In this document: positions 1,657-33,782 of the stretch, in pieces
How positions within the stretch are numbered: position 1 is the first letter of the stretch
How the letters are laid out: each line of letters begins with the position of its first letter
Virus genome (UHGV): UHGV-1410056
Direction: 5' to 3' (one strand)
Length of the DNA: 40,444 nucleotides
From: a virus
Made by a program: the position numbers and the translations under genes
Notes under the pieces: generated by a model
The model's input: only the letters and a program-made list of their open reading frames with translations
What the model was told of the DNA's origin: nothing
Database searches by the model: none

Positions 1657-2303
1657 GCAGCACGCTCCCGCCCCTGGATGTCTGTTGGTGACAGCGGAGC
1701 ATTGCTGAATGCATTTGTTAATCCGCCAATATCCAACGCGTATCCAGGGTGTAGTTGCACTGCCGGGTCTTCGCACTGATTACCCCAAACATCAAAGCCA
1801 TGAGACGTCTGGCGGGCGAACAGTTCAATGCGAGAAACATCGCCTAATAATTGCACAAGTTTTTCACGAACGATATCTGGCTTTCTTGAATGCTCAAGCC
1901 GCGGTGCGGTAAATGACTGAACGATCCCTGCATTAATGCGCGTAGGTAGTTTTCCCTTTACCGCAAACAGGCAATCTTCACTATTGGCGCGAGTCATGTG
2001 TCCCATACCCATAACCAGTTTATCTGGTTGTCGACTACCACATTTTATCCACGTGAAGCCCTTCATCGTCATCAGACGGAATCCCCAGGCTTCAACAACT
2101 TTTAGTGCTTCGAGTGGTTGTGTTGGCACCCACCACATGGCCAACAGACAGTTTTCATCGGCCAAATCCCACACAGGAAGGCGGCAGATATCCAGCACAC
2201 TCATAACCGGATATTTAAAACCGGCACCGCGATTACCATCTGCGGCTTTGTCCCGGTATACCCAGGGTGGATCTGCATAGATTAGTGTGTATTTCTTAGT
2301 CAT
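1653..2303 (-). CDS. DNA N6-adenine methyltransferase, MT-A70 family
   Basis: Catalytic DPPW motif in IYADPPWVY near the N-terminus; first ATG at 2303 (track ORF begins at GTG 2315). Confidence 0.8.
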   Translation of the reverse strand: MTKKYTLIYADPPWVYRDKAADGNRGAGFKYPVMSVLDICRLPVWDLADENCLLAMWWVPTQPLEALKVVEAWGFRLMTMKGFTWIKCGSRQPDKLVMGMGHMTRANSEDCLFAVKGKLPTRINAGIVQSFTAPRLEHSRKPDIVREKLVQLLGDVSRIELFARQTSHGFDVWGNQCEDPAVQLHPGYALDIGGLTNAFSNAPLSPTDIQGRERAA

Positions 2304-3002: not shown

Positions 3003-4025
3003 TTACTCGAATTCTGGACGCATATCGTTAAGCGTCATCATGAATTTTTGGTGATATTCATCACCGAGCTTTTCAGCCATGGTGTTAATTTCATTTTCAG
3101 CGCGCTTGAACATCGTTTTTGCATCTTCAGCAGATGGATCCAGGCTATTAAGTATCGCGATGATATATTCTCGAGCTTCTTCTCGTTCTGAATCTGAAAT
3201 TGGCGACAGGTGTTGACGCTCATCGTCAACTACGGAATATTCACCAGTGATAACAGCTGCGTTATCTTGGCTAAGTCCAGCTTCAGCGCGCTCATCCATA
3301 ACAACAGCCTTCTGCATTTCAATAGAAACAGGAAGATATTTGAACAGTCGGCGAATTACTGTTTTTTTAGCCATCTCATCGAAGTGATCAACCCATGGGC
3401 CACTGCTACCGGCTTTGCTCAGTGCACGAACTTTCTCAACGTCTGCCCGGCTCATAACTTCAAATTGGACTCCGCCATCTTTCAGTCGTGCAACGGCGTA
3501 AACGTGCGTTAATTCTCCGCGGTCACCTGTTTCGCAAGGTAAATGCTCGAGCGTTTCTTCCAGGCCGTATGAGTAGCTGAATTTGTCGTTTGTATGTACG
3601 GTACGAGCCGAGATACTCAGGATCTGCCCAGAGCGGCGGGCAAGGTCAATCATTCCGCGATAGCCGATAATCAGCTGTGCTTCTGTAGATACGGTTTCCC
3701 ATCTTCCATTTACTTTCTGGCGTTTGTCGAACGGTATCAGGTAAGCGTGTCCAAGAGCTCCGCCTGGTTCAAGACCCAATTGGGCACATTGCATAATTGC
3801 CCCCAGGAAGCTGGCTTGGTCGCATGATGCAAGTTTTGGAACCTTTCTGATCTCTGTGGTTGCTATGCGCGCCAGACGGTCTGCTGTCATGTGCTTTGGA
3901 AGTGCCAAAGCCATCTGAGCTTTAATTTTTGGGTCTGCCAGAAGTCCGGCCAGAGTTGTTGGTTTCTCATTATGATGTGCAACTTGGTTACCGGTAGCCG
4001 CTGCCTTAAGTGCATTGATAGACAT
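3003..4025 (-). CDS. recT: RecT-family single-strand annealing recombinase
   Basis: 340 aa; RecT-like core (ISARTVHTNDKFSYSYG ... HVYAVARLKDGGVQFEVMS); AAGGAG SD; immediately downstream of the YqaJ exonuclease gene. Confidence 0.8.
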   Translation of the reverse strand: MSINALKAAATGNQVAHHNEKPTTLAGLLADPKIKAQMALALPKHMTADRLARIATTEIRKVPKLASCDQASFLGAIMQCAQLGLEPGGALGHAYLIPFDKRQKVNGRWETVSTEAQLIIGYRGMIDLARRSGQILSISARTVHTNDKFSYSYGLEETLEHLPCETGDRGELTHVYAVARLKDGGVQFEVMSRADVEKVRALSKAGSSGPWVDHFDEMAKKTVIRRLFKYLPVSIEMQKAVVMDERAEAGLSQDNAAVITGEYSVVDDERQHLSPISDSEREEAREYIIAILNSLDPSAEDAKTMFKRAENEINTMAEKLGDEYHQKFMMTLNDMRPEFE

Positions 4026-11660: not shown

Positions 11661-11934
11661 CCTGCAACTTGCCGTCAAAGGTGAATACTTCGATGCCATG
11701 ATTCGTGGAGAGAAAACGGAAGAGTATCGCTTGTGTAATGACTACTGGAATAAGCGAATTATGTTCCGCGAGTATGGCCGCCTGATTATCACAAAGGGAT
11801 ATCCGAAGCGTGACGATTCCAGCCGCAGAATTGATGTCCCGTATGACGGATATGAAATCAAGACAATCACACATCCCCACTTCGGCGATAAACCGGTAAA
11901 GGTGTTCGCGATAAAGGTAAATATTGATGGCTAA
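11653..11934 (+). CDS. ASCH-like small protein
   Basis: 93 aa; GTG start after AGGAGG; motif GEYFDAMIRGEKTEEYR reminiscent of ASCH/DUF3850. Confidence 0.4.
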   Translation: MANLQLAVKGEYFDAMIRGEKTEEYRLCNDYWNKRIMFREYGRLIITKGYPKRDDSSRRIDVPYDGYEIKTITHPHFGDKPVKVFAIKVNIDG

Positions 11935-12265
11935 ATCAGCAGCAGAGCGCAAAGCCGCTCAGAGAGCCAGACAAGCTGCATCTGGTGTGCGTAAGCTGGA
12001 AATTGTGCTTGATGCTCAGGAAATTGAAATGCTGGAGCGTAACTGTGCCACGCGTCGCCCCGGGCGTGCGCCTTACGAATTTGGTGAGTATATAGCGTTA
12101 CTGATCCGCCAGGATGATGCACGCGTGCGCGGGCGTATAAAATCGATCAGCAGAAAATGTTGCGGTAAGTGCGGCGAGAGAGTTCCAGTTAATTCATGCC
12201 CGTGTAATGGTGACTCGCAATGCTGGGTGACTAAAGGCTGGCATGAAACGAAATTAATAGTGTGA
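11927..12265 (+). CDS. Hypothetical basic protein with C-terminal Cys cluster; candidate late-gene regulator by position
   Basis: 112 aa from ATG 11927; C-terminal CCGKCGERVPVNSCPCNGDSQC; last early gene before a terminator and terS. Confidence 0.35.
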   Translation: MAKSAAERKAAQRARQAASGVRKLEIVLDAQEIEMLERNCATRRPGRAPYEFGEYIALLIRQDDARVRGRIKSISRKCCGKCGERVPVNSCPCNGDSQCWVTKGWHETKLIV

Positions 12266-12383: not shown

Positions 12384-12980
12384 ATGATGCCTGCTGAACC
12401 TAAAACCTATAAACGCAAATCAACGCAATTTAAGCCACTAACAGCAATGCAGGAGGCTTATTGCCAGTCATACATCAAAACGCCTGAAAACCAGACTCAG
12501 GCAGCGATTAACGCAGGATTCTCCCCAAATACAGCGGCAGTTAAAGCCAGTGTCATGATGCGCGATGAACGCATTCAAAAACGGATTGCCGAGTTGATGG
12601 AGGAGCGCAACAAACGAATGCGCGTCAGTGCTGATTACGTTCTCATGCGCCTGGTGGAGATCGACCAGATGGACGTGATCGACATCCTCAACGACGATGG
12701 GAGCCTTAAACCAATCCGTGAGTGGCCGAAAATCTGGCGCACTACGCTTAGTGGCTTTGATCTGTCATCGACCATCATGAACATGAACGAGGATTCGATA
12801 GAGACAATCCTCAAAAAAATTAAATGGCCTGACAAGGTGAAGAACCTTGAGCTGATTGGTAAGCATGTTGATGTCAACGCGTTCAAAGAACGTCTGGATG
12901 TTAATGTGAATGTGACAATTGCTGATCGCATAGCAGCAGCCAGGAAGCGACTCAAAGAACGTCAGGATGGTAATCAGTGA
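12384..12980 (+). CDS. Terminase small subunit
   Basis: 198 aa from ATG 12384; N-terminal HTH-like region (AAINAGFSPNTAAVKAS); directly upstream of and overlapping the large subunit; track ORF start at 12306 lies inside a terminator hairpin. Confidence 0.65.
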   Translation: MMPAEPKTYKRKSTQFKPLTAMQEAYCQSYIKTPENQTQAAINAGFSPNTAAVKASVMMRDERIQKRIAELMEERNKRMRVSADYVLMRLVEIDQMDVIDILNDDGSLKPIREWPKIWRTTLSGFDLSSTIMNMNEDSIETILKKIKWPDKVKNLELIGKHVDVNAFKERLDVNVNVTIADRIAAARKRLKERQDGNQ

Positions 12981-14452
12981 CAGATACAGCGTTATCTCCT
13001 GAAGAGCAGTTGATCGAGGATATTGCAGGGTTCACTCACGATCCGCTTGGCTATGCCCTCTATGCGTTCCCGTGGGGGGAAGAGGGGACTGAACTGGCAC
13101 ATGCTACCGGCCCACGTCAGTGGCAGGCTGATGCGTTCCGAGAGATACGTGATCACCTGCAGAATCCAGAGACGCGCTATCAGCCGCTTATGCTGGCACG
13201 TGCTTCGGGTCACGGTATTGGTAAATCCGCATTCATCTCAATGCTGATCAACTGGGGCATGTCCACTTGCGAGGATTGTAAGGTCGTGGTGACCGCCAAC
13301 ACCGACAACCAGCTACGAACGAAGACCTGGCCGGAAATTATCAAGTGGTCGAACCTTGCTATCACGGAAGACTGGTTTACCTGTACCGCTACCGCGATGT
13401 ACAGCAATGACCCAGGGCACGACAAGCGGTGGCGGGCTGACGCAATACCCTGGTCTGAGCACAACACTGAGGCATTCGCCGGACTACACAACGAGCGCAA
13501 ACGCATCATCGTGGTATTCGATGAAGCGTCGAACATTGCCGATCTGGTGTGGGAGGTAGCAGAGGGTGCGCTGACGGACGAAGACACCGAAATCATCTGG
13601 GTGGCGTTCGGGAACCCGACGCGTAACACCGGGCGTTTCCGTGAATGTTTCCGCAAGTACAAACACCGCTGGAAGTGTGCGCAGATTGACAGCCGGACGG
13701 TGGAAGGCACTAACAAACAGCAGTTGCAGAAATGGGTTGATGACTACGGGGAAGACAGCGACTTCGTTAAAATCCGTGTGCGCGGCATATTCCCTGATGC
13801 ATCTGAATTGCAGTTTATCCCTACCGGTCTTACTGACGAGGCAATGAAACGGGTGGTAACCGCTGCGCAGGTTGCACATGCTCCGGTGATAATCGGCGTT
13901 GACCCGGCATACTCCGGCGTTGATGACGCTGTGATATACCTGCGGCAGGGGCTACACAGTAAGGTGCTGTGGACTGGCAACAAGACTACCGACGATCTGA
14001 TTATGGCGAAGCGTATCGCTGACTTTGAAGACCAGTATCAGGCTGACGCGGTGTTCATCGACTTCGGTTACGGAACCGGTTTGAAGTCAATCGGTGACGG
14101 CTGGGGTCGTACATGGCAACTTGTTCCGTTCGGTGGCGCGTCTACTGACCCGCAGATGCTCAACAAGCGTGGGGAGATGTTCAATTCATGCAAGACATGG
14201 CTGAGGCTTGGCGGCATGCTGGATGACCAGGAAACAGCAGACGACCTGTCGGCGGCAGAGTACAAAGTTCGAGTGGACGGTAAAATCGTTATCGAACCGA
14301 AGGAAGATATCAAGGAGCGGCTTGGGCGTTCACCGGGTAAAGGCGATGCGCTACTGCTGACGTTTGCGTTCCCTGTGTCTAAGCGTCTGCGAATTCCCGG
14401 GCAGCAGAACCAGCAAGGCAAGGCCATCACAGATTACGATCCCTATGCTTAA
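12977..14452 (+). CDS. Terminase large subunit (ATPase/nuclease)
   Basis: 491 aa; Walker-A-like SGHGIGKS, VVFDEASN-type Walker B region and C-terminal nuclease-like region; GTG start overlapping terS stop. Confidence 0.85.
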   Translation: MTDTALSPEEQLIEDIAGFTHDPLGYALYAFPWGEEGTELAHATGPRQWQADAFREIRDHLQNPETRYQPLMLARASGHGIGKSAFISMLINWGMSTCEDCKVVVTANTDNQLRTKTWPEIIKWSNLAITEDWFTCTATAMYSNDPGHDKRWRADAIPWSEHNTEAFAGLHNERKRIIVVFDEASNIADLVWEVAEGALTDEDTEIIWVAFGNPTRNTGRFRECFRKYKHRWKCAQIDSRTVEGTNKQQLQKWVDDYGEDSDFVKIRVRGIFPDASELQFIPTGLTDEAMKRVVTAAQVAHAPVIIGVDPAYSGVDDAVIYLRQGLHSKVLWTGNKTTDDLIMAKRIADFEDQYQADAVFIDFGYGTGLKSIGDGWGRTWQLVPFGGASTDPQMLNKRGEMFNSCKTWLRLGGMLDDQETADDLSAAEYKVRVDGKIVIEPKEDIKERLGRSPGKGDALLLTFAFPVSKRLRIPGQQNQQGKAITDYDPYA

Positions 14453-14494: not shown

Positions 14495-14530
14495 TAAAAC
14501 AAAGCCAGCTCATAGGCTGGCTGTTTGTGA
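14495..14530. terminator. Bidirectional intrinsic terminator between convergent terL and Gp49-like gene
   Basis: Stem AGCCAGC (14503-14509) / GCTGGCT (14516-14522), T-rich on plus side (GTTTGTG) and on minus side (TTTGTTTT). Confidence 0.6.
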
Positions 14531-14542: not shown

Positions 14543-14914
14543 TTATTGCTCGCTTAACTTCTGCTTCAGCAAGTAACCTTCAAGCATCCAGATTTTGTTT
14601 ACAGCATTCTGTCGGGCAATCTTCCGACCAATTTCTGCATCAAAGTTTTCCGGGCTTGCACAGGCGCTCTCTCCGGTGACGGTGAAGCCGTTGCGCAGCA
14701 CCAGGACGCAGAACGTCAGCAGAGAAAGTGATTCGTGCGGCTGGTAGTTTACCTCTCCGCCAGTATGTTTCACTTTTATGGCTACGCCAAAGGCACCATC
14801 TTCTGCTGTGAAATATGCCTCCTGAGCAATAATGCTCTCGATATGGTCTGGCTTAACGCGCGGCGCGGCTAAACCTTTAGCCTGAATTTCAGATTCAATG
14901 TCTTTGTCACTCAT
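14543..14914 (-). CDS. Gp49-like (Phage_gp49_66 family) protein; reverse-strand moron
   Basis: 123 aa; motifs GLAAPRV ... NGFTVTGESACASPENF ... WMLEGYLL typical of the gp49 family; AAGGTGAG SD. Confidence 0.55.
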   Translation of the reverse strand: MSDKDIESEIQAKGLAAPRVKPDHIESIIAQEAYFTAEDGAFGVAIKVKHTGGEVNYQPHESLSLLTFCVLVLRNGFTVTGESACASPENFDAEIGRKIARQNAVNKIWMLEGYLLKQKLSEQ

Positions 14915-14930
14915 AGTCTAATCTCACCTT

Positions 14931-14954
14931 AAAAAAATGCCCGGCGAACCGGGC
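14931..14954 (-). terminator. Rho-independent terminator (minus strand) immediately upstream of the Gp49-like start
   Basis: Stem GCCCGG (14939-14944) / CCGGGC (14949-14954) with A7 on plus (T7 on minus). Confidence 0.6.
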
Positions 14955-15032
14955 GAACTGGAAGCAATGAGTTATGCCTTCCGTGGCTGTACGGGTTTAC
15001 AGCATGAAGTCATCGCAATGGCGTCCTGCTGT

Positions 15033-15074
15033 AAAAAGGGCGGTGATAGTCCCTCAAGGGAAACCATCACCGCC
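15033..15074 (-). terminator. Terminator-like hairpin downstream of tRNA-Arg (minus strand)
   Basis: 9-bp stem GGCGGTGAT (15039-15047) / ATCACCGCC (15066-15074), with A5 on plus 15033-15037. Confidence 0.45.
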
Positions 15075-15117
15075 AAGCACCTGGAACTTCTGGCATCACG
15101 GTCCTTAGGCGTGATTC

Positions 15118-15194
15118 TGGCGTGGCATGCAGGATTCGAACCTGCGACCAACCGCTTAGAAGGCGGTTGCTCTGTCCAACTGAGCTAATGCCAC
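15118..15194 (-). tRNA. tRNA-Arg, anticodon UCU (reads AGA)
   Basis: 77 nt; manual fold gives 7-bp acceptor stem GUGGCAU/AUGCCAC, D-stem GCUC/GAGC, anticodon stem ACCGC/GCGGU with loop CUUCUAA, T-arm GCAGG-UUCGAAU-CCUGC, encoded CCA. Confidence 0.9.
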
Positions 15195-15516
15195 AACGCT
15201 GAGAGCACTTAGCCTGTTAAGGCGCCACACTTTGTCGCGGCTCCATAAATGCTCTCATCGTTGTACCCTCGTCTCTTCCGAGGCGTCACACCGAATCGCC
15301 GGGATGGTGAATCCCCGTGCGCGGAATAAAACCGCTCGACTTGCACATTCCGGCTACCTGGTTCGTTTGCCCGAGCAAGGGAGGGTGCCCCTTAAACGTA
15401 TCCAGACCGCTATCGGCGCATGTGCCATACGCCGTACTGCTCAAAATAAAAGCTCACTCCACCTGTTCAATTTAACGACAAGCCAGTCAGGTTAGTAACC
15501 GGAATGAACTCTTTGG

Positions 15517-15531
15517 TTACCTGAAAGGTAA
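15517..15531. promoter_or_regulatory. Perfect TTACC-tgaaa-GGTAA operator between the divergent tRNA/moron transcript and the structural operon
   Basis: Adjacent reverse-strand TTGACA (plus 15549-15554) 17 bp from a TACCTT -10 candidate. Confidence 0.5.
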
Positions 15532-15621
15532 TAATTTGTGCGTTAAATGTCAACTATCTACGATAAATAAATCATATGTGGTTAAATTGGTAATAATTTA
15601 ATTGCGTACGGAGTCATTGAT

Positions 15622-15828
15622 ATGTGCATGGGTAGCTCACCATCAGTGCCTGCAACACCAGAAGTTCAGGCAGCACCACAGGAGCAGGATGCCGCCGTTG
15701 TTGATGCCCGCGACGAAGAAACACGTCGCCGTCGCGCTGCTGCTGGTCGTAGTTCTACGCTGCTTACCGGTTCTCAGGGCGACACATCAACCGCTAATAC
15801 CAGCGGTAAAACGCTGCTTGGTCAGTAA
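15622..15828 (+). CDS. Small low-complexity protein (68 aa) preceding the portal gene
   Basis: ATG 15622 preceded by CGGAGTCATTGA, the same 12-nt initiation region that precedes the portal ATG. Confidence 0.45.
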   Translation: MCMGSSPSVPATPEVQAAPQEQDAAVVDARDEETRRRRAAAGRSSTLLTGSQGDTSTANTSGKTLLGQ

Positions 15829-15842: not shown

Positions 15843-17522
15843 ATGGCGGAAACAACTAAAGAGCGATTGAACAAACAGTTCGCACAACTTGAAAGCGAGC
15901 GTCAGTCGTTCGAGCCGCACTGGCGCGAGTTGAGTGATTACATCAACCCGCGTGGTTCCCGCTTTCTGACTTCTGAGGTTAACCGTAACGATCGACGCAA
16001 TACACGCATTATTGATTCGACCGGGACTATGGCGGCGCGCACTCTCGCCAGCGGCATGATGTCAGGCATCACAAGCCCCGCGCGTCCGTGGTTTCGCCTG
16101 GCTACGCCAGATCCTGAAATGATGGATTATGGCCCTGTTAAGTTGTGGCTTGAGGCGGTGCAGAACCGCATGAACGATATGTTCAATAATTCGAATCTCT
16201 ATCAGTCGCTGCCGCAGTTATACGGAAGCCTCGGCACATACAGCACTGGTGCAATGGCAGTGCTGGAGGATGACGAGGACATCATTCGCACAATGCCATT
16301 CCCGATAGGCAGTTACTACCTGGCTAACTCACCTCGTGGCAGTGTGGACACCTGTTTTCGCAAGTTCTCTATGACTGTTCGTCAGCTTGTTCAGGAGTTC
16401 GGGCTAAATAACGTCAGCGAATCCGTAAAAAGCATGTGGGAAAGCGGAACCTACGAGAAGTGGATTGAAGTGATGCATTCGGTTTACCCGAACATTGACC
16501 GCGATACATCGAAGCTGGATAGCAAGAACAAGCCATTCAAATCGGTTTATTACGAGGTTGGTGGCGATAACGACAAGTTGTTGCGTGAGTCCGGATTCGA
16601 TGAGTTTCCAATTATGGCTCCGCGCTGGGAAGTTAACGGCGAAGATGTTTATGGATCATCATGCCCGGGTATGCTGGCGCTTGGACCTGTTAAGGCATTG
16701 CAGCTTCTCCAGAAGCGCAAGTCGCAGTTGATTGATAAAGCCACCAATCCGCCGATGGTTGCTCCGACTTCCCTCAAGAATCAGCGTGCCTCCCTTCTTC
16801 CTGGCGACATCACGTATATCGATCAGATTACTGGTCAGGATGGTTTCAGGCCTGCTTATCTGGTTAACCCCAGTACAGCAGATTTGGTGGCAGACATTCA
16901 GGACACCCGTCAAATCATTAACAGCGCCTACTTTGTCGATCTGTTCATGATGTTGCAGAACATCAATACCCGCTCGATGCCTGTTGAAGCGGTGATCGAA
17001 ATGAAAGAAGAAAAACTTCTGATGTTGGGGCCGGTTCTGGAGCGTCTGAACGACGAATGTCTTAATCCTCTCATTGATCGCGCTTTCTCGATGATGGTGC
17101 GTAAAAACATGCTGCCGCCACCGCCTGACGCGATGGAAGGTATGCCCCTGAAGGTCGAATACATTTCCGTCATGGCTCAGGCGCAGAAGTCTATCGGCCT
17201 GTCCAGTCTGGCGTCTACGGTCAACTTCATTGGTCAACTTGCGCAAGCGAAACCAGAAGCTCTCGACAAACTCAACGTTGATCAGGCGATCGATGCATTC
17301 GCTGATATGTCCGGAGTGTCTCCAACCGTCATTGTTCCGCAGGAACAGGTTGAGCAGGCTCGCCAGCAACGGGCACAGCAACAACAGCAGCAACAAATGA
17401 TGGCGATGGGGATGGCGGCGGCACAGGGTGCCAAGACGCTAAGCGAAGCTAAAACTTCGGATCCGAGTGTTTTGTCAGCTATGGCGAATGCAGTTAGTGG
17501 TCAGGGTGGGCAATCACAATGA
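15843..17522 (+). CDS. Portal (head-to-tail connector) protein, T7 gp8-like
   Basis: 559 aa; C-terminal Gln/Ala-rich tail (QQRAQQQQQQQMMAMGMAAAQGAKTL...) closely resembles the T7 gp8 C-terminus; follows terminase. Confidence 0.75.
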   Translation: MAETTKERLNKQFAQLESERQSFEPHWRELSDYINPRGSRFLTSEVNRNDRRNTRIIDSTGTMAARTLASGMMSGITSPARPWFRLATPDPEMMDYGPVKLWLEAVQNRMNDMFNNSNLYQSLPQLYGSLGTYSTGAMAVLEDDEDIIRTMPFPIGSYYLANSPRGSVDTCFRKFSMTVRQLVQEFGLNNVSESVKSMWESGTYEKWIEVMHSVYPNIDRDTSKLDSKNKPFKSVYYEVGGDNDKLLRESGFDEFPIMAPRWEVNGEDVYGSSCPGMLALGPVKALQLLQKRKSQLIDKATNPPMVAPTSLKNQRASLLPGDITYIDQITGQDGFRPAYLVNPSTADLVADIQDTRQIINSAYFVDLFMMLQNINTRSMPVEAVIEMKEEKLLMLGPVLERLNDECLNPLIDRAFSMMVRKNMLPPPPDAMEGMPLKVEYISVMAQAQKSIGLSSLASTVNFIGQLAQAKPEALDKLNVDQAIDAFADMSGVSPTVIVPQEQVEQARQQRAQQQQQQQMMAMGMAAAQGAKTLSEAKTSDPSVLSAMANAVSGQGGQSQ

Positions 17523-20723: not shown

Positions 20724-21328
20724 TGGCCTCTGTAGTAGAGATCTGTAATCGTGCGCTGTCCAATATTGGCAACAGCCGCAGCATTAACAGCCTGACGGAA
20801 GCCAGCAAGGAAGCAGGGGAATGTTCGCTGCACTTTGAGGCCTGCCGTGATGCTGTGCTTTCTGATTTTGACTGGAACTTTGCTACCAAACGCGTGGCGC
20901 TTGCAGATACGAACAATCCACCGCCTGACTGGGAATATGCGTACCAGTACCCGTCCGATTGTCTGCGCATTACTGAAATTATGCTTCCTGGTGTACGCAA
21001 TCCAACAGCAGCAATGCGCGTTCAGTACGAAGTTGGTGCAGACACCAACGGAACAGGAAAGTTGATCTACACAGACCAGCCGCAGGCATGGCTCAAGTAT
21101 GTCTCTCGCGTTTCAGATGTGAACATGTTTGATGCCATTTTTATGGAGGCGTTGGCCTGGCGTCTTGCGGCAGCTATTAACATGGCGCTGACTGGGAATG
21201 CAGACCTCGGTACGTTTGCCCTCAATATGTACAATCGCGTGATTCTTAGTGCTGGCTCGCATAGCCAGAATGAATCACAGGAACCACAGCCACCGGTTGA
21301 TGAGTTTACCATTGCGAGGTTGTCCTGA
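20723..21328 (+). CDS. Tail adaptor / tubular protein A-like (T7 gp11-like)
   Basis: About 201 aa; N-terminal pattern NRALSNIGNSRSINSLTE resembles the T7 gp11 N-terminus; followed by a large gp12-sized gene. Confidence 0.45.
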   Translation: MASVVEICNRALSNIGNSRSINSLTEASKEAGECSLHFEACRDAVLSDFDWNFATKRVALADTNNPPPDWEYAYQYPSDCLRITEIMLPGVRNPTAAMRVQYEVGADTNGTGKLIYTDQPQAWLKYVSRVSDVNMFDAIFMEALAWRLAAAINMALTGNADLGTFALNMYNRVILSAGSHSQNESQEPQPPVDEFTIARLS

Positions 21329-23799
21329 TGGCTATCAGTTGGATCCAGCCCAGCTTTGCCGGTGGTGAGATTGGACCGTCGTTGTACGGGCGTATTGACA
21401 TGGCGAAGTACCAGGTGGCATTGCGCAAGTGCGATAACTTTATCGTGCGGCAGTATGGCGGCGTTGAGAATCGACCTGGTACGCGTTTTGTCGGTGCCGC
21501 CAAATACCCAAATCGGAAATGCCGCCTGATCCCGTTCCAGTTCTCGACGGTTCAGACCTATGCTCTGGAGTTCGGACACCAGTACATGCGCGTTATCAAA
21601 GATGGTGCGTTGGTGCTGAACAGCAGCAATGTTATTTATGAAATTGCCACGCCATATACTGAAGCCGATCTGTTCCGAATTAAATTCACGCAAAGCGCCG
21701 ACGTGCTTACGCTGGTTCATCCGGCATACCCGCCGAAAGAGTTGCGTCGCTATGCGCATGACAACTGGCAACTGGTTGATGTGGTAACGAAGAACGGGCC
21801 ATTTGAAGATATCAATATTGACGAGTCAGTGACGGTTTATGCCAGCGCCAGCACCGGGACAATTACGTTAACGGCAAGCGCCTCTATTTTTGGCGCGGAG
21901 CAGGTAGGCAAATTGTTCTATCTGGAACAGCCTGCAGTGGATTCTGTGCCGGTATGGGAAACCAGTAAGAGTACGTCGATTGGCGATATTCGCCGTGCAG
22001 ACAGTAACTACTATCGCGCCGTTACAGCAGGCAAAACAGGTACTTTGCGCCCTTCGCATACAGAAGGCACATCATGGGATGGCTGGGGCGGATCCGGTGA
22101 TGATGATACTGGCATTGAGTGGGAGTATCTGCACAGTGGTTTTGGCATTGCCAGTATAACTGCTGTAAATGGCACTACTGCAACTGCTGAGGTGATTTCC
22201 TATATCCCTTCGCAGGTCGTTGGCGAGGATAATGCCAGCTATAAATGGGCTAAATATGCCTGGAACAGTGTTAATGGTTATCCTGGCACTGTTGTTTATT
22301 ATCAACAGCGTCTTTACTTCGCCGCATCGACTGCGTTCCCTCAGACTATCTGGGCCAGCCGTACCGGGGATTATAAGGATTTTGGCAAAAGCAATCCTAC
22401 GCAGGATGACGACAGAATTATCTACACCTATGCCGGGCGTCAGGTTAATGAGATCCGCCACCTGATTGATGTTGGTTCTCTGGTGGCGCTGACTTCCGGA
22501 GGTGAGTACGTCATCACCGGCGACCAGAACAAAGTGTTAACCCCATCATCATTTGCATTCAGCTCTCAGGGATCAAATGGCTCGAGCAATGTCCCACCAA
22601 TTGCCGTGGCGAATATTGCTCTGTTCGTCCAGGAGAAAGGCAGTGTTGTCCGTGATCTGGCCTACTCATTCGATGTTGACGGCTATCAGGGGAACGACCT
22701 TACTATCCTTGCCAATCATCTTTTTCAGAAGCACAGCATTGTTGACTGGTGCTTCTCGATTGTCCCTTACTCCAGTGCCTTCTGCATTCGTGATGACGGT
22801 AAATTACTGGTGATGACCTATTTGCGTGATCAGCAGGTTTTTGCATGGGCACCACAATCCAGTACCGGAAAATATGAAAGCACATGCAGTATCAGCGAAG
22901 GCAATGAAGATGCGGTGTATTTCGTCGTTAACAGAACCGTTAACGGGCAAACAGTGAGATACATCGAGAGACTGTCCAGCCGTTTATTTACCAGCGATGA
23001 AGATGCTTTCTTTGTTGATTCTGGCCTTAGCTATGATGGAAGAAATACGTCTGACAGAACGATGACCATCACTGGTGGTTCTGGCGAATGGGATTACCGC
23101 GCGGAATATACAATCAGTGTTTCTGGTGGTGCGTACTTCACCAGTAGTGATGTCGGTGCGCAACTACAGTTCCCTTATACCGGAACTGCTCCTGATACTG
23201 GCGATGAAGTGTCAAAAGAATTACGTTGCGACATTATTTCTGTAACCAGCAATACCGCTGTAGTGGTTCGTGCTAACAGGAACGTCCCGCCATCCCTCAG
23301 GAATGTGGCCACCACGAACTGGCAGATGGCGCGCCGGACATTTGGAGGCCTGTCTCATCTTGAAGGCCAGACCGTAAACATTCTCTCTGATGCGAACGTG
23401 GAACCACAGAAAGTGGTTTCCGGAGGTGCCGTCACGCTGGAATCTCCGGGGGCTGTAGTGCACATCGGCCTGCCAATAACTGCTGAATTCGAAACACTGG
23501 ATATCAACATTAACGGACAGGAAACGCTGCTGGACAAAAAACAGGTGATCCCCTCCGTTACTCTGGTTGTGAATGCCAGTCGCGGCATCTGGGCGACTAC
23601 GCCCGGCGGTAAATGGTACGAATATCCACAGCGTGAATTCGAGTTCTACGATGATCCTGTTGATGATGCTACCGGAAAAGTAGAAGTGAAACTGGACAGT
23701 AACTGGGGCAAAAACGGACGTGTAAAAATCCGTCAGCTTGATCCGTTGCCGCTGTCTGTTCTTGCCGTTATTCCTCGCCTTACTGTTGGGGGATTCTGA
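21328..23799 (+). CDS. Tail tubular protein B / nozzle-like (T7 gp12-like by size and synteny)
   Basis: 823 aa; position immediately after the gp11-like gene. Confidence 0.45.
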   Translation: MAISWIQPSFAGGEIGPSLYGRIDMAKYQVALRKCDNFIVRQYGGVENRPGTRFVGAAKYPNRKCRLIPFQFSTVQTYALEFGHQYMRVIKDGALVLNSSNVIYEIATPYTEADLFRIKFTQSADVLTLVHPAYPPKELRRYAHDNWQLVDVVTKNGPFEDINIDESVTVYASASTGTITLTASASIFGAEQVGKLFYLEQPAVDSVPVWETSKSTSIGDIRRADSNYYRAVTAGKTGTLRPSHTEGTSWDGWGGSGDDDTGIEWEYLHSGFGIASITAVNGTTATAEVISYIPSQVVGEDNASYKWAKYAWNSVNGYPGTVVYYQQRLYFAASTAFPQTIWASRTGDYKDFGKSNPTQDDDRIIYTYAGRQVNEIRHLIDVGSLVALTSGGEYVITGDQNKVLTPSSFAFSSQGSNGSSNVPPIAVANIALFVQEKGSVVRDLAYSFDVDGYQGNDLTILANHLFQKHSIVDWCFSIVPYSSAFCIRDDGKLLVMTYLRDQQVFAWAPQSSTGKYESTCSISEGNEDAVYFVVNRTVNGQTVRYIERLSSRLFTSDEDAFFVDSGLSYDGRNTSDRTMTITGGSGEWDYRAEYTISVSGGAYFTSSDVGAQLQFPYTGTAPDTGDEVSKELRCDIISVTSNTAVVVRANRNVPPSLRNVATTNWQMARRTFGGLSHLEGQTVNILSDANVEPQKVVSGGAVTLESPGAVVHIGLPITAEFETLDININGQETLLDKKQVIPSVTLVVNASRGIWATTPGGKWYEYPQREFEFYDDPVDDATGKVEVKLDSNWGKNGRVKIRQLDPLPLSVLAVIPRLTVGGF

Positions 23800-24263
23800 T
23801 GATCGATGTTCAAATTATTCCCGCAACCGAAGAGCATCTTCAGATGATTTTGCCGGATGTTCGTCAGGCTGATATTGACGAACTGTATGCGGTATCACTG
23901 ATGACTACCGAAGATGCGCTGCGTGTTGGTCTGCGTACTGCGACTATGGCCTGGTCAGGATTTGCGAACGGAGAACTGGTAACCATGTTTGGCGTATCTC
24001 CGGCGTCAATGATCGGTGGCAATGGTACGCCCTGGCTGGTCGGAACCAGCCGTATCGAAAAATATCAGAAGACATTTCTTCGCCACTGCCGCCCTGTATT
24101 GCAGCAGATGCTGGCAGTTTATCCGCGCCTGGAAAACTATGTCGACGAGCGAAACCATGTTGCCAAAGCATGGCTGCACTGGCTTGGATTCAGGCTTGAA
24201 GAAGCCGCGCCTTATGGTGCTCTTGGTCTTAATTTCCACAGATTTCACATGGAGAGAAAATAA
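23799..24263 (+). CDS. Hypothetical virion protein (154 aa)
   Basis: ATGA overlap with upstream gene. Confidence 0.45.
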   Translation: MIDVQIIPATEEHLQMILPDVRQADIDELYAVSLMTTEDALRVGLRTATMAWSGFANGELVTMFGVSPASMIGGNGTPWLVGTSRIEKYQKTFLRHCRPVLQQMLAVYPRLENYVDERNHVAKAWLHWLGFRLEEAAPYGALGLNFHRFHMERK

Positions 24264-24802
24264 TGTGTAACCCAGCCATCGCTTTGGTTGCCGTCACAGT
24301 GGCATCCACAGCCGCGTCAATGTACAGCCAGAGCAAGCAGGCAAAATACCAGTCAGCCATAGCTGATCGGAATGCTGAAATTGCTGAAGCTCAGGCACAG
24401 GATTCAATCAATCGTGGGAATATTGAAGCGGATCAGCGTCGTCGTGAAATGCGTCAACGCTCAGGCACTGCGGCGGCCACTATGGGGGCTACCGGTGCGG
24501 AATTAAGTAGCGGAACAGCTCTTGACGTTTTTGCGGATAATGCTCAGTTCGGCACTCTTGATGCGTTAACGACAGTGAATAATGCTCAGCGTGAGGCATA
24601 TGGGTATCAGGTTCAGGGAATGAATGCTCAGGCACAGGGGGCTGCTGCTCAGTCGGCTGCTAAATCATCGATGACCAGCACTTTGTTAACGGCACCACTA
24701 AAAGCATACGGTGCATACCAGATGGGCGGCGGAACGTGGAGCCCGTTCTCTCAGAAGGCTGCGCCGATTTCTGCTGCTGTTGGCACTCCAACCGGTCGAT
24801 AA
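24263..24802 (+). CDS. Internal virion protein (T7 gp14-like by composition and position)
   Basis: 179 aa; N-terminal hydrophobic segment then Ala/Gln-rich region. Confidence 0.4.
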   Translation: MCNPAIALVAVTVASTAASMYSQSKQAKYQSAIADRNAEIAEAQAQDSINRGNIEADQRRREMRQRSGTAAATMGATGAELSSGTALDVFADNAQFGTLDALTTVNNAQREAYGYQVQGMNAQAQGAAAQSAAKSSMTSTLLTAPLKAYGAYQMGGGTWSPFSQKAAPISAAVGTPTGR

Positions 24803-24814
24803 GGGGATAATAAG

Positions 24815-27328
24815 ATGCCAGTTGTACCAACAACATCGGGCCGTCAGGTTCAGAGCAGAGGGATTTCGACGCAGGGATTCTCATCGTTTCAGACACCAAA
24901 TGTCGGTGATGTACTTGGCGATGTTGCAGAGCAATATGCAGGTATTATTGCGCAGGCAAAACAGCGTGCGAATGTTGCTATGGCTCAGGATGCTTCTCTT
25001 AGCTTAAGCCAGATAAGCAGCGATCTGCTGAATAACCCTGAAACAGGTTTGCTTAACCTGAAAGGGAAAAATGCTATTGGAAAAGGTCAGGAGTATACGC
25101 AGCAGTTTGATGCTCAGGTCGAACAACTGGCTATGTCGCTGCCGGATGAACAGGCTCGTAATGCTTTCATGCAGCAGGCGCAGCAGCAGCGCATTCAGTT
25201 CACTACGCAGGCCGGGCGGCACGAGATAGGGCAAATAAATGCCTACGAAGAAGGCCAGTTTCAGGCTACGCTGCTGAACAATGGTAAAAATGCCGCAGCA
25301 TTGTATGGCGACAACGCCGCATACGTATTGGCTAATAAGCAAACTTTCCAGCAAATTGAGGATTACGGCATTGCACATGGCTGGAGTGACGAGCAAATCC
25401 AGGCCAAGAAAATCGAGTTTAAAGAAGCAACAGCAAAAGCAACTGCTCAAAATGCTATTGGAGCAAACTATCTTCAGGTAAGACAGCAAAACGGCGAGTT
25501 AAGCGATACTGCTGCTGGTTCTCGCCGTGCTGTAGCAGATAGTGGCTCTTCCGATCGTACCCGCGGTATACGCAACAATAACCCCGGCAATCTTGAATAC
25601 AGCAAAACTAATCCGTGGGTTGGGCAGACTGGTGATGATGGTCGCTTTGCCAAATTCGAAACCCCTGAACACGGTATTCGTGCATTAGGGCGGAACCTGA
25701 TGTCGTATCAGCGGCAGGGTATTGATACCGTCAGCGAGATAATTAATCGCTGGGCACCGCCTACTGATAAAAATGACACTATGTCGTATATCAAAGCAGT
25801 GTGCGAACAACTTGGCGTTTCTGCTGATGAGCCTCTCGATGCATCAAATCCTGATACCCTGAAGGCGCTTTGTGCAGCCATTATCCATCATGAAAACGGT
25901 AGCCAGCCATACAGTGATCAGCAGTTAACTGCAGGTGTTAGTGCTGCGCTGGGGCTTTCTCAGCTACCGACAAAAAATAAACGTTATACCGGTGTAGCCT
26001 GGTTCGATGCTTTAAGTGAATCAGATCAGGCCAGCGTGTTGCGACAGACTGATGCACTAGCCAGACAACAGCAGGCTGAATATAAAACGATGCTCGACAG
26101 CCGGGTTCGCGATGCGACGGCTGCGTATATGCGTGGCATTGAATTTCCTAACCCACCTGGTGAGGATGATTTTATTGCAGCTTATGGAGTCAGAGAAGGA
26201 AACCTGCGATATACCGAGTTTAAGAATACGCAGATCGCCGGACAGTATATAGGCTCTTTCCGCAACATGCCGACAAGCAGCATTACAGCATATGTTGAGC
26301 AATTACGCCCGGATACTGGTGATACAGGGGAGGGGTATGCGGCACGCGCAACTCTTTATGACAACGTTGTTTCGGCTGCAAATCAGGTGATAAAGCAGCG
26401 GCAGTCGGATCCTGTGCAGTTCTCTCTTGCCTCCGGACAGGCAAAGCCTATCGACATGAGCAATAAGGATAACTTTGGACAGAGCGTTGCCTTGCGTGCC
26501 GCTCAGGTCAGTGACCTTGCTAAGTCATATGGCACTCCACTGACGTTCTTTTCCAAATACGAGGCCAATCAGATCGGTGTTTTCTTTCGTGATGCTCCAG
26601 TTTCCCAACAGGCAGCATATCTCGATACCATCAGGCAGAGCACTGGTGGTGGGCAGGTGTATATGTCAGCACTACAGCAGATCAGTGCCAACGCTCCATC
26701 TGCTGCCGTTGCCGGGATACTGATGGATAAGCCTGGTGGTATTTTGGCAGAAAAAAACTGGTTTAATCCGGATGTTTCCGTGTCTCCTGAAACCGCTGCG
26801 CAGACAATTCTTGCTGGCGCGGCGGCTCGTAAAGGTACTGATGATGCGAAAGGTATTCCGATGCCTAAAGATGCTGATCTTCGCCTTGAGTTTTCTGACA
26901 TGGTGAAGGATGCATTTGCTGGTGACGCTCAGGGCGCATCAATGGCATACGAGATCGCAAAGGATTATTACGCTGGTGTGATGGCGAAAAAAGGCGTGGT
27001 ATCAGGCGAAATTGACAATGATGTCTGGAAACAGGCTGTTAACGTAGCTACAGGTGGCGTGCATGACTATAACGGAATGGGGAATGTCCTTTTGCCGTGG
27101 GGAATGTCTGCAGAGCAATTCGATAAGCAGGTTAATCAGGCTTGGAATGAACAAGTTGTCGGCTCCGGGATAAAAACACCGCCTGGTCAGTATGGTTTGC
27201 AAAGTTACGGCGATAGTCAGTACCTGGTGAAACTTGGTACTGGTTATCTGCTGAAAGATGATGGTTCTCCCGTTGTTCTTAATCTGACACAGAAGCGTCA
27301 GAGATTCTCCGGAGATATTCCGCAATGA
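24815..27328 (+). CDS. Internal virion / ejection protein with conserved RNNNPGN-containing domain
   Basis: 837 aa; segment RGIRNNNPGNLEY ... FAKFETPEHGIRALGRNL ... IINRWAP; possible cell-wall-acting domain (inference). Confidence 0.45.
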   Translation: MPVVPTTSGRQVQSRGISTQGFSSFQTPNVGDVLGDVAEQYAGIIAQAKQRANVAMAQDASLSLSQISSDLLNNPETGLLNLKGKNAIGKGQEYTQQFDAQVEQLAMSLPDEQARNAFMQQAQQQRIQFTTQAGRHEIGQINAYEEGQFQATLLNNGKNAAALYGDNAAYVLANKQTFQQIEDYGIAHGWSDEQIQAKKIEFKEATAKATAQNAIGANYLQVRQQNGELSDTAAGSRRAVADSGSSDRTRGIRNNNPGNLEYSKTNPWVGQTGDDGRFAKFETPEHGIRALGRNLMSYQRQGIDTVSEIINRWAPPTDKNDTMSYIKAVCEQLGVSADEPLDASNPDTLKALCAAIIHHENGSQPYSDQQLTAGVSAALGLSQLPTKNKRYTGVAWFDALSESDQASVLRQTDALARQQQAEYKTMLDSRVRDATAAYMRGIEFPNPPGEDDFIAAYGVREGNLRYTEFKNTQIAGQYIGSFRNMPTSSITAYVEQLRPDTGDTGEGYAARATLYDNVVSAANQVIKQRQSDPVQFSLASGQAKPIDMSNKDNFGQSVALRAAQVSDLAKSYGTPLTFFSKYEANQIGVFFRDAPVSQQAAYLDTIRQSTGGGQVYMSALQQISANAPSAAVAGILMDKPGGILAEKNWFNPDVSVSPETAAQTILAGAAARKGTDDAKGIPMPKDADLRLEFSDMVKDAFAGDAQGASMAYEIAKDYYAGVMAKKGVVSGEIDNDVWKQAVNVATGGVHDYNGMGNVLLPWGMSAEQFDKQVNQAWNEQVVGSGIKTPPGQYGLQSYGDSQYLVKLGTGYLLKDDGSPVVLNLTQKRQRFSGDIPQ

Positions 27329-29127: not shown

Positions 29128-29132
29128 ATTAA

Positions 29133-31607: not shown

Positions 31608-31616
31608 GGATGAGAA

Positions 31617-31757: not shown

Positions 31758-31764
31758 CGTGAGC

Positions 31765-31776
31765 GTGACATGTCAC
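31765..31776. promoter_or_regulatory. Perfect 12-bp palindrome GTGACATGTCAC
   Basis: Identical to 12262-12273; immediately followed by terminator 31777-31801. Confidence 0.45.
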
Positions 31777-31801
31777 AGGCCGCTTTCGCGGCCTTGTTTT
31801 T
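31777..31801 (+). terminator. Rho-independent terminator ending the virion operon
   Basis: Stem AGGCCGC / GCGGCCT with loop TTTC, followed by TGTTTTT. Confidence 0.7.
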
Positions 31802-33524: not shown

Positions 33525-33648
33525 CACCGCAACGCCAATTACTGGTGGTGAACTGGACAAGGTTGGCGTACCGGCCTAAGTGGTACCGGCGTCCTTTCGG
33601 ACCCCTGCCCAGCCCACCATAATTCGGATATAGCTGTGCTTAACGCAT

Positions 33649-33782
33649 AAAAAAACCACGTCTGGCGTGGTATGCGCCACTTAGTAACCCGGGACGCCAA
33701 TCCCGGCACTGGATTTTGCCAGTGCCCGATTACTATGGCACAAGAGGAGTGCGATGTAAATTTACCGCAAAGGTAATGATAA
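33649..33782 (-). ncRNA. Candidate small RNA or attenuated leader (about 120 nt) upstream of the antirepressor gene
   Basis: Reverse-strand promoter TTGATT (plus 33800-33805) - 17 bp - TATCAT (plus 33777-33782), overlapped by operator 33762-33776; transcript contains hairpins (GGCACTGG/CCAGTGCC; CCGGGA/TCCCGG) and ends at intrinsic terminator CCACG-N5-CGTGG + T7 (plus 33649-33670); no credible ORF. Confidence 0.4.

Follow-up and report, generated by a model that had tools for sequence, protein, structure and literature searches.

Why would a prophage place some 320 nt without a convincing gene between a promoter and a tRNA, in a unit that runs against its neighbors? The window, meaning the whole 40,444-nucleotide stretch of DNA analyzed here, is a phiV10/epsilon15-like (Uetakevirus) E. 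coli prophage. In it, a minus-strand accessory unit splits the terminase gene (12977..14452) from the portal gene (15843..17522), both on the plus strand, as an earlier sequence-only reading had proposed. The items listed in that reading were all found in the sequence at the positions it gave, and its proposed anatomy is right: an operator-controlled promoter, a structured untranslated stretch, a tRNA-Arg(UCU), two terminators and a Gp49-like gene. The untranslated stretch (15195..15516) had been described as a leader that might hold a second RNA gene, a degraded tRNA or a protein-coding remnant. We find that these 320 nt are best explained as a functional RNA in their own right and not as a leader, and the locus as a repressor-controlled early transcription unit that combines this RNA with anti-defense. 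Unless noted otherwise, the features below lie on the minus strand.

The unit begins with a predicted sigma-70 promoter overlapped by a repressor operator (15516..15553). The promoter, itself read by eye only, consists of a -35 element TTGACA (15553..15548), a 17-nt spacer and a -10 element TACCTT (15530..15525). A consensus promoter scan did not call it, because the -10 element matches the consensus at only three of six positions. In divergent relatives, the -35 element, the spacing and the operator-embedded -10 element are conserved, with variation in the spacer sequence. The operator, ATTACCTTTCAGGTAAC (15532..15516), is a member of a 17-bp palindrome family, ATTACCN5GGTAAT, which has 15 sites in the window against 1.1 expected, a number reached in none of 100 shuffles. 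In epsilon15, the record marks the homologous position as a repressor site. The enrichment of the operator family and the retention of the promoter elements in relatives support the operator control proposed earlier, and the transcript is predicted to start near 15518.

At the other end of the 320-nt stretch lies a tRNA-Arg(UCU) with an encoded CCA (15118..15194). Its fold is supported both by ARAGORN (anticodon tct) and by the Rfam model RF00005 (73.3 bits against a gathering score of 29), as the earlier reading expected. The tRNA is argU-like: it shares its D arm, T arm and anticodon loop exactly with K-12 argU, stem changes are compensated, and the acceptor stem is swapped relative to argU (GUGGCAU/AUGCCAC). 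AGA is used 7.8 times per 1000 codons in the prophage, or for 12.5% of its Arg codons, compared with an E. coli average of about 2 per 1000. This enrichment fits a tRNA that is useful to the phage.

Two intrinsic terminators, T1 and T2, are present as described before, each with a GC-rich hairpin and a U-tract. T1 (GGCGGU...ACCGCC + CUUUUU; 15033..15074) has a stem of 15 pairs (15074..15039) followed by CTTTTT. T2 (GCCCGG-UUCG-CCGGGC-AUUUUUUU; 14931..14954) is near-ideal, with a stem (14954..14939) of six GC pairs, a UUCG loop and seven U residues (ATTTTTTT in the DNA). Between them lies a hairpin, ACAGCAGGACGCCAUUGCGAUGACUUCAUGCUGU (14999..15032; z -2.9), conserved in Uetakevirus relatives. 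T2 abuts the ribosome-binding site (RBS) AAGGUGAG (14930..14923), and its stem ends 24 nt from the ATG at 14914, which agrees with the earlier remark that a terminator stands close before the start codon. Epsilon15 keeps T2, and its record annotates a rho-independent terminator there. A bidirectional terminator, T3 (14496..14522), is shared with the convergent terminase gene, and the phiV10 record annotates a terminator at this site. Altogether, the region holds six terminator-like sites against 1.7 expected. No promoter was found between T1 and the acb4 RBS.

The Gp49-like coding sequence (14543..14914) matches PF13876 with 118.5 bits against a cut-off of 27 (E 1.9e-34), confirming its designation. 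The solved Acb4 structure, PDB 9e4w_A, also matches the protein (E 0.0066, residues 67-108). PMC11722364 equates Acb4 with PF13876 and reports that eight of eight tested Acb4 homologues bound 3'3'-cGAMP. On the basis of these matches, the product is likely an Acb4-family anti-CBASS cyclic-dinucleotide sponge. In sister phages, the slot behind T2 holds a Tad2-like gene (PF11195) or other small genes. Because a PF13876/Acb4 gene is found here and a Tad2-like gene in the same slot of sisters, we regard the locus as an early anti-defense unit. The slot thereby resembles phage anti-defense hot spots with Acb4/Tad2 sponges, since Acb4-family and Tad2-like genes are likewise interchangeable in it; a link between a slot of this kind and a conserved structured RNA, with a tRNA and tandem terminators alongside, goes unmentioned in the portions of the Acb4/Tad2 literature consulted. 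The flanking proteins gave no PADLOC match. A longest-ORF test of downstream gene orientation was uninformative, as it picked the convergent terminase gene or spurious ORFs.

The 320-nt stretch itself is multi-domain, with a pseudoknotted core of about 170 nt and a long closing helix. The core (15267..15434) is defined by a 42-sequence alignment (A2), covariation and a covariance model. It opens with H1 (15434..15414), the junction UAGCGGUC (15412..15405) and H2, with a variable arm and a YCCUUG loop (15410..15353). These are followed by a near-invariant 19-mer, GGUAGCCGGAAUGUGCAAG (15358..15340), by H3 (15335..15321) and by H4 with the loop UUCACCA (15315..15301). The pseudoknot partner GGUG (15292..15289) and H5, CCUCG-GAAGAGA-CGAGG (15283..15267), complete the core.

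Across the 27 pairs of the alignment, 97% of base-pair cells are paired, compared with 28-51% in slid controls, and 12 of the pairs show compensatory changes. H1, for instance, covaries at pair 10-22, which is A-U in 23 sequences and G-C in 17. The conserved G.U pairs 34-96 (41/41) and 11-21 (39/41) become A.C mismatches on the opposite strand; the covariation is therefore specific to the transcribed strand. The 19-mer is near-invariant in more than 150 distinct loci, and other unpaired segments are invariant too. In the window, the covariance model finds a single copy at 149.5 bits. A long-range GCACAU/AUGUGC pairing that RNAalifold placed instead of the local H1 was rejected, since it involves invariant columns only whereas H1 covaries; it may represent a tertiary contact. 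The H2-base pairs 30-100 and 31-99 were not accepted as secure, and the variant GGUAACCGG breaks the latter.

The suggestion that the leader may hold a second RNA gene thus proved apt: it is a distinct, conserved, covarying RNA family common to unrelated phages, and this finding displaces the notion of a degraded tRNA. The earlier impression that 15195..15516 lacks a convincing ORF also holds, as no conserved ORF was found. Every frame is interrupted by stops when homologues are compared, and the inserts do not come in multiples of three nucleotides, which disposes of the protein-coding remnant. When the transcribed strand of 15195..15516 was compared with Rfam 15, including GOLLD, ROOL, riboswitches, C4/isrK and ribozymes, nothing matched at E<=10, and a scan of the window at the gathering threshold likewise assigned no family to the leader. 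In two other cassette variants, the only matches at E<=1 were chance ones to miRNAs. PGAP does not annotate the core RNA, and a literature search by sequence string and keywords, with subscription-only papers outside its scope, found no description of it. Members of the C4/isrK family do occur elsewhere in the window (33541..33725) and are unrelated to this RNA. We also considered rRNA mimicry or pairing, as the 13-mer CGGUGUGACGCCU is identical to 23S rRNA near position 1822. This match is read as chance because the score of the full 23S alignment does not set it apart from shuffles (49 against 42.6 +/- 5.5) and a search for antisense rRNA matches of at least 10 nt found none.

The core is embedded in a cassette of further modules. 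On its 5' side, module B (15448..15514) forms a long hairpin, AAAGAGUUCAUUC ... GUCGUUAAAU ... GGAGUGAGCUUUU (MFE -22.9 kcal/mol, z -3.45). This hairpin is one variant form of the CAAC...GUUG helix modules that relatives carry, and the type bearing GUCGUUAAAU is present in other cassettes. On the 3' side, the long closing helix H6, CAACGAUGAGAGCA / UGCUCUCAGCGUUG (15194..15263; MFE -31.6 kcal/mol, z -5.14), encloses a variable two-hairpin insert, and its last G is G1 of the tRNA. H6 shows compensatory variants across loci (among them GAGAGCA/UGCUCUC, AAGAGCA/UGCUCUU, GAGAGUA/UACUCUC and GAUAAGAG/CUCUUAUC).

Across cassettes, H6 is abutted by a same-strand tRNA or tRNA-like module. A true tRNA is absent from 64% of loci; where the window has a real tRNA, relatives have a tRNA-like module starting GUGGUG, so that the tRNA occupies a slot filled elsewhere by this module. 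The D-like and T-like loops of the module are complementary (GCUGAU/AUCAGC), with a compensated variant GCUAAU/AUUAGC. A conserved 3' trailer hairpin, AUCACG-CCUAAGGAC-CGUGAU (15095..15115), with an AGGA-containing loop, follows the tRNA or tRNA-like module in most cassettes. Other conserved modules 3' of the core are UCCUU loops and arrays of CAAC...GUUG helices that extend up to about 900 nt. A T1-type terminator lies 3' of the core in 120 of 126 distinct loci, and the stem base and flanks of T1 are conserved. T1 is thus the cassette's own conserved terminator and more than a mere barrier before the gene. Its loop bears a UCCCUUG motif in common with the H2 loop. Cassette-specific co-evolution of the two loops was rejected, as the longest shared string averaged 5.8 nt within and 5.4 nt between cassettes; only a UCCUU-type motif is common to both.

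The core is widespread, being present in 1840 of 5426 complete E. coli genomes (about a third) and in about 20 Enterobacteriaceae species. Its carriers include Uetakeviruses, lambdoids, P1/P7/D6/SJ46 and an N4-like Klebsiella phage. Where genes can be called with clarity, it lies upstream of co-directional genes and near a promoter. In lambdoids, it is predicted to start 8-130 nt after the early promoters that follow cI and its terminator. In P1, it stands between tRNA-Ile and ban; P1 keeps the core only, directly before ban and with no terminator 3' of it, so the 3' modules must be dispensable in some settings. Loss of the core has left epsilon15 viable, with T2 and the gene still in place, which indicates that the RNA is accessory. 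The record of the N4-like phage SopranoGao closes with the array, and the sole downstream annotated CDS overlaps the RNA modules; we suspect that this CDS is spurious.

What, then, does the RNA do? With some hesitation, we favor a stand-alone early RNA that would be released by RNase P and act in trans. Once the operator is free of the prophage repressor, the sigma-70 polymerase of the host would start near 15518 and make a primary transcript of about 480 nt, comprising module B, the pseudoknotted core, H6, tRNA-Arg(UCU), the trailer hairpin and T1. A cut by RNase P at 15195/15194 would separate the tRNA, which would serve AGA-rich phage genes, from a structured RNA of about 320 nt whose 3' end the cut defines. 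In relatives, the tRNA-like module in the tRNA slot would give the same cut. Most transcripts would end at T1 and T2, and a read-through fraction would yield the Acb4-family sponge. The released RNA, with its near-invariant junction nucleotides, may then act in trans early in development, on some conserved macromolecule of the host or the phage. Because of the core's neighbors, host takeover or counter-defense would be the most likely role.

RNA ends defined by RNase P have precedents in MALAT1-mascRNA, the E. coli 3'ETS-leuZ, the stable RNAs of the T4 tRNA cluster, P1 C4 and P4 CI. As in those systems, a non-tRNA RNA would here be co-transcribed with a tRNA or tRNA-like structure; we infer its processing from the geometry of the junction. 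The cassette's own conserved terminator and the abutting tRNA or tRNA-like module suggest that the RNA has a discrete gene. The trailer hairpin, the UCCUU loops and the helix arrays 3' of the core would be superfluous in a nascent element that addresses only the polymerase, which favors the stand-alone RNA. The strand-specific covariation, the occurrence in unrelated phages and the Acb4-family and Tad2-like genes in the slot behind it speak for this reading too. On the other side, a position upstream of co-directional genes and near a promoter fits a role in cis equally well, a stoichiometric sponge gene behind two strong terminators is awkward to reconcile with passive read-through, and the -10 element is weak by consensus.

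The strongest rival, a serious one that we nonetheless consider unlikely, is processive antitermination in cis after the manner of HK022 put: as it emerges, the core would bind its own polymerase and make it resistant to T1, T2 and later terminators. Only transcripts from the early promoter would then reach acb4, the lambdoid early-left genes and, in P1, ban. The core is likewise promoter-proximal in repressor-controlled early operons and upstream of intrinsic terminators, as are putL and putR, with no N-type gene between. Its predicted closeness to the lambdoid early promoters fits such a role, and so does the strong terminator that separates it from co-directional genes in nearly all contexts. 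No N-like gene was found before the first terminator in cdtI-type phages. The lack of a promoter found between T1 and the acb4 RBS, the abutment of T2 on that RBS, the need of a sponge protein for early, high expression and the retention of just the core inside the P1 operon point the same way.

However, the covariance model had no match in HK022 21000-29000 or 27500-33000, the latter expected to hold PL and PR, and we reject homology to put. The core measures about 170 nt and has five helices, whereas put is about 70 nt with two stem-loops; unlike put, it occurs once per phage, with no PR copy found. A terminator of its own and a slot for a tRNA or tRNA-like module go with it as well. The putative antitermination would account neither for the conservation of the terminator sequence nor for the tRNA-like slot, trailer hairpin and module arrays, and a cassette bearing a terminator plus its own antidote would be odd. 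Moreover, Uetakeviruses offer only one small accessory gene to antiterminate, and epsilon15 retains T2 and that gene without the core. A lambda-type nut site (boxA CGCUCUUA / UGCUCUUUAACAA plus boxB) was rejected too: the window cassette has no boxA, and the nearest match there, UGCUCUCA, is base-paired as the 3' strand of H6. In only one locus (L088) does the core have a perfect rrn-type boxA on its 3' side, and the H5 GAAGAGA loop merely resembles boxB.

It is conceivable, if short of probable, that the core represents an unrecognized class of large modular phage RNA working as an early effector, either a new protein-independent device for terminator read-through into anti-defense and early genes or an RNA that neutralizes or senses a host immune or translation component. 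GOLLD and ROOL are large phage-borne RNAs that often lie next to tRNAs or embed them. The core RNA shares with them the large modular structured form, carriage by phages and prophages, and proximity to tRNAs. It differs in giving no Rfam match, in its Enterobacteriaceae hosts, and in having a smaller conserved core fixed behind early promoters.

We think it improbable that the core is a structured 5' domain with housekeeping duties only, protecting the 5' end from decay or serving as a scaffold for folding and processing of the tRNA or tRNA-like module, with no specific partner. The core does always lie near a 5' end, past the transcription start or, in P1, after tRNA-Ile, and the cassette is tightly juxtaposed to the 5' end of the tRNA. 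However, a near-invariant 19-mer, invariant unpaired segments and a pseudoknot, kept over more than 150 loci, exceed the constraint on a stabilizer, and nearly two-thirds of loci lack a true tRNA.

A riboswitch-like aptamer that tunes read-through at T1 and T2, and with it expression of the anti-defense cargo or early genes, to a metabolite or immune signal is more doubtful still. Conserved junctions and a pseudoknot give the core an aptamer-like architecture, it belongs to a 5' UTR that intrinsic terminators follow, and the cargo consists of genes for cyclic-nucleotide sponges. Yet the terminators lie 150-600 nt from the core with autonomous modules between, no alternative pairing of core and T1 was seen, no riboswitch family matched, and the P1 core has no terminator following it.

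A type III toxin-antitoxin RNA was rejected. The locus has the layout of ToxIN in common (a promoter, a structured RNA, an intrinsic terminator and a protein gene reached by read-through), but no tandem repeats were found in the RNA, and the downstream PF13876 protein, without a PADLOC match, is an Acb4-family sponge and not an endoRNase toxin. The core RNA also occurs without an Acb4-family gene.

Finally, it is very improbable that something other than an RNA is conserved here, whether a small protein, a pseudogene or a site that acts at the DNA level, such as an origin or an array of protein-binding sites: hypothetical ORFs are annotated over the core in some records (among them mEp460_037, cdtI orf40 and phiV10p04) and the epsilon15 record lists IHF and repressor sites nearby, but the broken frames rule out small-protein coding, and the strand-specific covariation with its G.U pairs and the lack of tandem repeats speak against the rest.

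By our analysis, early transcripts in some of the most studied systems in biology, namely E. coli, P1, Stx-converting phages and the epsilon15/phiV10 group, are headed by an unannotated RNA of 170-500 nt whose conservation is of the grade seen in riboswitches. Several of the "hypothetical proteins" annotated over the core region are probably spurious. The interchange of tRNA and tRNA mimic offers a clean example of how phages acquire tRNA genes, and the cassette marks a variable cargo slot that can be mined for new anti-defense genes. If the RNA modifies polymerase, it would join the single kind of RNA-only antiterminator known from phages so far and would explain how early-left operons are expressed in lambdoid prophages that lack N. 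If it acts in trans, it would add an RNA player, linked to Acb4 and Tad2 sponge genes, to the early anti-defense and host-takeover repertoire.

By sequence, the window is a Uetakevirus (epsilon15/phiV10-like) prophage, and the 1.5 kb around the locus share 98-99.6% identity with Escherichia phage phiV10, the O157 typing phages 9 and 10, and many E. coli prophages. The minus-strand locus sits between the large terminase gene (12977..14452(+)) and a small gp3-like ORF (15622..15828(+)) next to the portal gene (15843..17522(+), PF12236 match). Its overall anatomy, as described in the sequence-only reading, was confirmed for the tRNA, terminators, operator, promoter and Gp49-like gene. The tRNA-Arg(UCU) was called by ARAGORN and Rfam at 15194..15118(-) (73.3 bits). 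It is closely related to host argU, with the same D arm, T arm and anticodon loop and with compensated changes in the acceptor and anticodon stems. AGA, the codon it was said to read, occurs at 7.8 per 1000 codons in the prophage ORFs, several-fold above the E. coli average. Both terminators proposed 3' of the tRNA are canonical intrinsic terminators (T1, 15074..15033; T2, 14954..14931), and T2 directly adjoins the RBS of the Gp49-like gene (14914..14543), which fits the short distance to its start codon that had been claimed.

The suspected operator is a 17-bp palindrome, ATTACCTTTCAGGTAAC, at 15532..15516, and the epsilon15 record marks the homologous site as a repressor site. The proposed promoter also holds: its -35 TTGACA, 17-nt spacing and operator-embedded -10 TACCTT are kept in divergent relatives, while the spacer itself varies. 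A consensus promoter scan made no call at this operator-overlapped promoter. The palindrome family, ATTACCN5GGTAAT, numbers 15 sites in the window where 1.1 are expected, including those at 5404, 5467, 6179, 8466, 8528, 12351, 12369, 15516, 32694, 33761, 33854 and 34974. They mark many promoter regions, and one pair lies just upstream of or inside the small-terminase ORF start. This over-representation at many promoter regions suggests that a single repressor governs many scattered promoters in the window. The sites at 33761 and 33854 adjoin a P1/P7-type antirepressor immunity module, in which an isrK Hfq-binding RNA (33649..33725(-), Rfam, 67.7 bits) is directly followed by a C4 antisense RNA (33541..33624(-), 66 bits).

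The leader (15195..15516(-), about 320 nt), which had been suspected of carrying a second RNA gene, proved to contain a conserved, covarying core of about 170 nt (15267..15434(-)), preceded by a predicted 5' helix module (15514..15448(-)). Sensitive BLAST of 15195..15620 gave near-identical matches in phiV10-type phages and, restricted to about 15435..15195, 70-83% matches in unrelated phage groups. These comprise lambdoids (cdtI, mEp460, mEp390, 2H10, Stx2c- and Stx2a-converting phages), P1-like phages (P1, P7, D6, SJ46, RCS47), Uetakeviruses of Klebsiella and Enterobacter, an N4-like Klebsiella phage and a phage deposited as a Stenotrophomonas phage. An exact 19-mer of the core, GGTAGCCGGAATGTGCAAG (15358..15340), occurs in at least 120 IMG/VR contigs and in 24 loci from the genomes of about 20 Enterobacteriaceae species. 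Among 5426 complete E. coli genomes, 1840 carry the core, on chromosomes as well as P1-like plasmids, and PGAP annotates nothing at these positions. Judged from these comparisons, the leader is a conserved RNA common to unrelated phages.

A structure of five helices is supported by an alignment of 42 representatives (pairwise identity <93%). They are a local hairpin (H1); H2, which encloses a variable arm; H4; a pseudoknot that pairs CACC of the H4 loop with a GGUG further downstream; and H5. Over the 27 pairs, 97% of cells are paired, a share that drops to 28-51% once the partners are slid; changes on both sides occur in 12 of the pairs, and the covariation score of 0.256 (0.123 in shuffles) was reached by 0 of 500 shuffles. 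Frequent G.U pairs fix the transcribed strand. The long unpaired segments UAGCGGUC, UUCACCA, GGCGAU and the 19-mer are invariant or nearly so, with only single-base variants of the 19-mer found. A long closing helix around a variable insert, H6 (CAAC...GUUG), also covaries. The covariance model finds one copy in the window, at 149.5 bits. A protein-coding remnant was rejected as an explanation of the leader, since frames are not conserved among homologues and indels do not come in threes.

Several short motifs accompany these elements. A 13-mer between the pseudoknot and H5, CGGUGUGACGCCU (15292..15280(-)), is identical to E. coli 23S rRNA at about 1822..1834, and a conserved 12-mer of relatives, AUACGGUGUGAC, matches the same stretch; the extended alignment was not significant, and a relationship to 23S rRNA was rejected. 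In most cassettes, anti-Shine-Dalgarno-like UCCUU/CCCUU occurs in the H2 apical loop (~15385..15375) and the T1 loop (~15060..15050), and the trailer hairpin loop (15109..15101) displays AGGA. These loops could form loop-loop contacts or binding sites; no cassette-specific co-evolution of the H2-loop and terminator-loop motifs was found. In Klebsiella/Enterobacter-type lambdoid leaders (L008, L041, L076), several H5-like hairpins, GUGAC-N-stem(GGAARGAC loop)-stem, flank the core on both sides and look like a repeated protein-binding motif.

Comparison of about 150 distinct loci revealed an ordered cassette: an early sigma-70 promoter with operator, optional 5' modules, the core, H6, a slot filled by a true tRNA-Arg(UCU) or by a tRNA-like module, a trailer hairpin (AUCACG...CGUGAU) and a conserved terminator (GGCGGU...ACCGCC-CUUUUUACA). 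The tRNA-like module consists of a GUGGUG acceptor-like stem, D-like hairpin, variable centre, T-like hairpin and CACCAC; its D-like and T-like loops are complementary (GCUGAU/AUCAGC, with a compensated variant GCUAAU/AUUAGC). The window tRNA occupies the slot of this mimic, and the acceptor stem starts with GUGG in both. An abutting same-strand tRNA is present in 36% of loci; epsilon15-like phages have tRNA-Arg 3' of the RNA, and P1-like phages have a CAU-anticodon tRNA 15 nt away on the 5' side (tRNA-Ile2, trnI, in the P1 record). A terminator lies 240-800 nt 3' of the 19-mer in 120 of 126 distinct loci, and T1 of the window therefore belongs to the RNA cassette.

In lambdoids, the cassette comes after cI, the cI terminator and an operator-bearing PL-type promoter; the predicted distance from transcription start to core is 8-130 nt, and the early-left genes follow beyond the cassette terminator. 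P1 has kept only the core (L004, AF234173, 2497..2693). It lies in the ban operon, which C1 controls, with trnI on one side and the start codon of ban about 85 nt downstream on the other; P1 relatives share this position, and the P1 record has no feature there. In epsilon15 (L003, 1440..1700) and one IMG/VR relative (L169), the core breaks off at the H2 loop, and the tRNA or mimic is missing too (compare L043, L012). The junction lies inside CCCTTGATGCT, a string that close relatives carry in the H2 apical loop and again in the T1 loop, so the deletion looks like recombination between two short repeats. Three hypothetical ORFs antisense to tRNA, terminators or structured RNA, phiV10p04 (window 14937..15188(+)), cdtI orf40 (L005, 2782..3237(-)) and mEp460_037 (L131, 2943..3311(-)), are probably spurious.

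The tRNA, terminators, operator family and Acb4-family gene are of known kinds. Rfam 15 gave no match for the leader, even at E<=10, or for two other cassette variants, and membership tests placed the core RNA in none of put (the HK022 antiterminator RNA), nut, type III antitoxins or any Rfam family. It resembles GOLLD/ROOL, the tRNA-associated large phage RNAs, and RNase P-defined RNAs in general character, without homology. In our incomplete coverage of the literature, sequence-string searches included, we found no description of it, and on that coverage we file it as a new RNA class.

For its function, we tentatively favor an RNA operon whose structured RNA is freed by processing, a reading we regard as plausible if short of probable. 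RNase P would cleave at the tRNA or mimic and so free a structured RNA about 320 nt long; most transcripts would end at T1 and T2, and read-through would supply the cargo gene. This proposal draws on the cassette's own conserved terminator, the tRNA/mimic slot, the extra conserved 3' modules and multi-module arrays, and the accessory, mobile distribution of the core. It also draws on SopranoGao, whose cassette stands at the record end; the sole CDS annotated downstream there runs across the RNA modules and is possibly spurious. Action in cis, as by put, is a less likely but serious rival: it would account for the promoter-proximal position of the core, the terminators ahead of early-needed genes (including a stoichiometric sponge) and the fact that no N gene precedes the first terminator, yet it leaves the 3' modules unexplained, and a covariance-model search of two HK022 stretches (21000-29000 and 27500-33000, the second expected to hold PL and PR) gave no hit, so the core is not related to put. 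The two modes are not mutually exclusive, and both fit; in both, we infer the transcription start, the processing and the target of the RNA. A passive 5' stabiliser or scaffold and a ligand-sensing switch are minor alternatives, and a non-RNA feature behind the conservation is essentially excluded.

In a few lambdoid contexts (L088 at ~3340..3380; also L164, L032, L045), a small hairpin and a boxA-like string follow within about 40 nt of the core; in L088 the string is a perfect rrn-type boxA, UGCUCUUUAACAA, with neither H6 nor a tRNA-like module present. Such loci suggest that the core can be combined with Nus-factor antitermination sites. Directly upstream of the small terminase, a 113-aa protein (11924..12265(+)) is homologous to phiV10p55 and epsilon15 gp49, annotated as transcriptional regulators; its arginine-rich N-terminus, AKSAAERKAAQRARQAASG, recalls N-type RNA-binding motifs, and a cysteine cluster is C-terminal. 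Neither Pfam nor PADLOC matched it. As a candidate late or antitermination regulator, it might act on the minus-strand RNA locus.

The Gp49-like assignment of the gene 3' of T2 is upheld by a PF13876 match (E 1.9e-34), and its product matches the solved anti-CBASS 4 structure (Acb4, 9e4w) at E 0.0066. According to the Acb4 paper (PMC11722364), SPO1 Acb4 is a PF13876 member and 8 of 8 tested homologues bind 3'3'-cGAMP. Sister prophages that share this RNA cassette and T2 have different cargo in the slot, either a Tad2-like protein (PF11195) or another small protein of unknown kind. With Acb4-family or Tad2-like cargo behind it, the RNA cassette thus heads an early, repressor-controlled hot spot of anti-defence genes.
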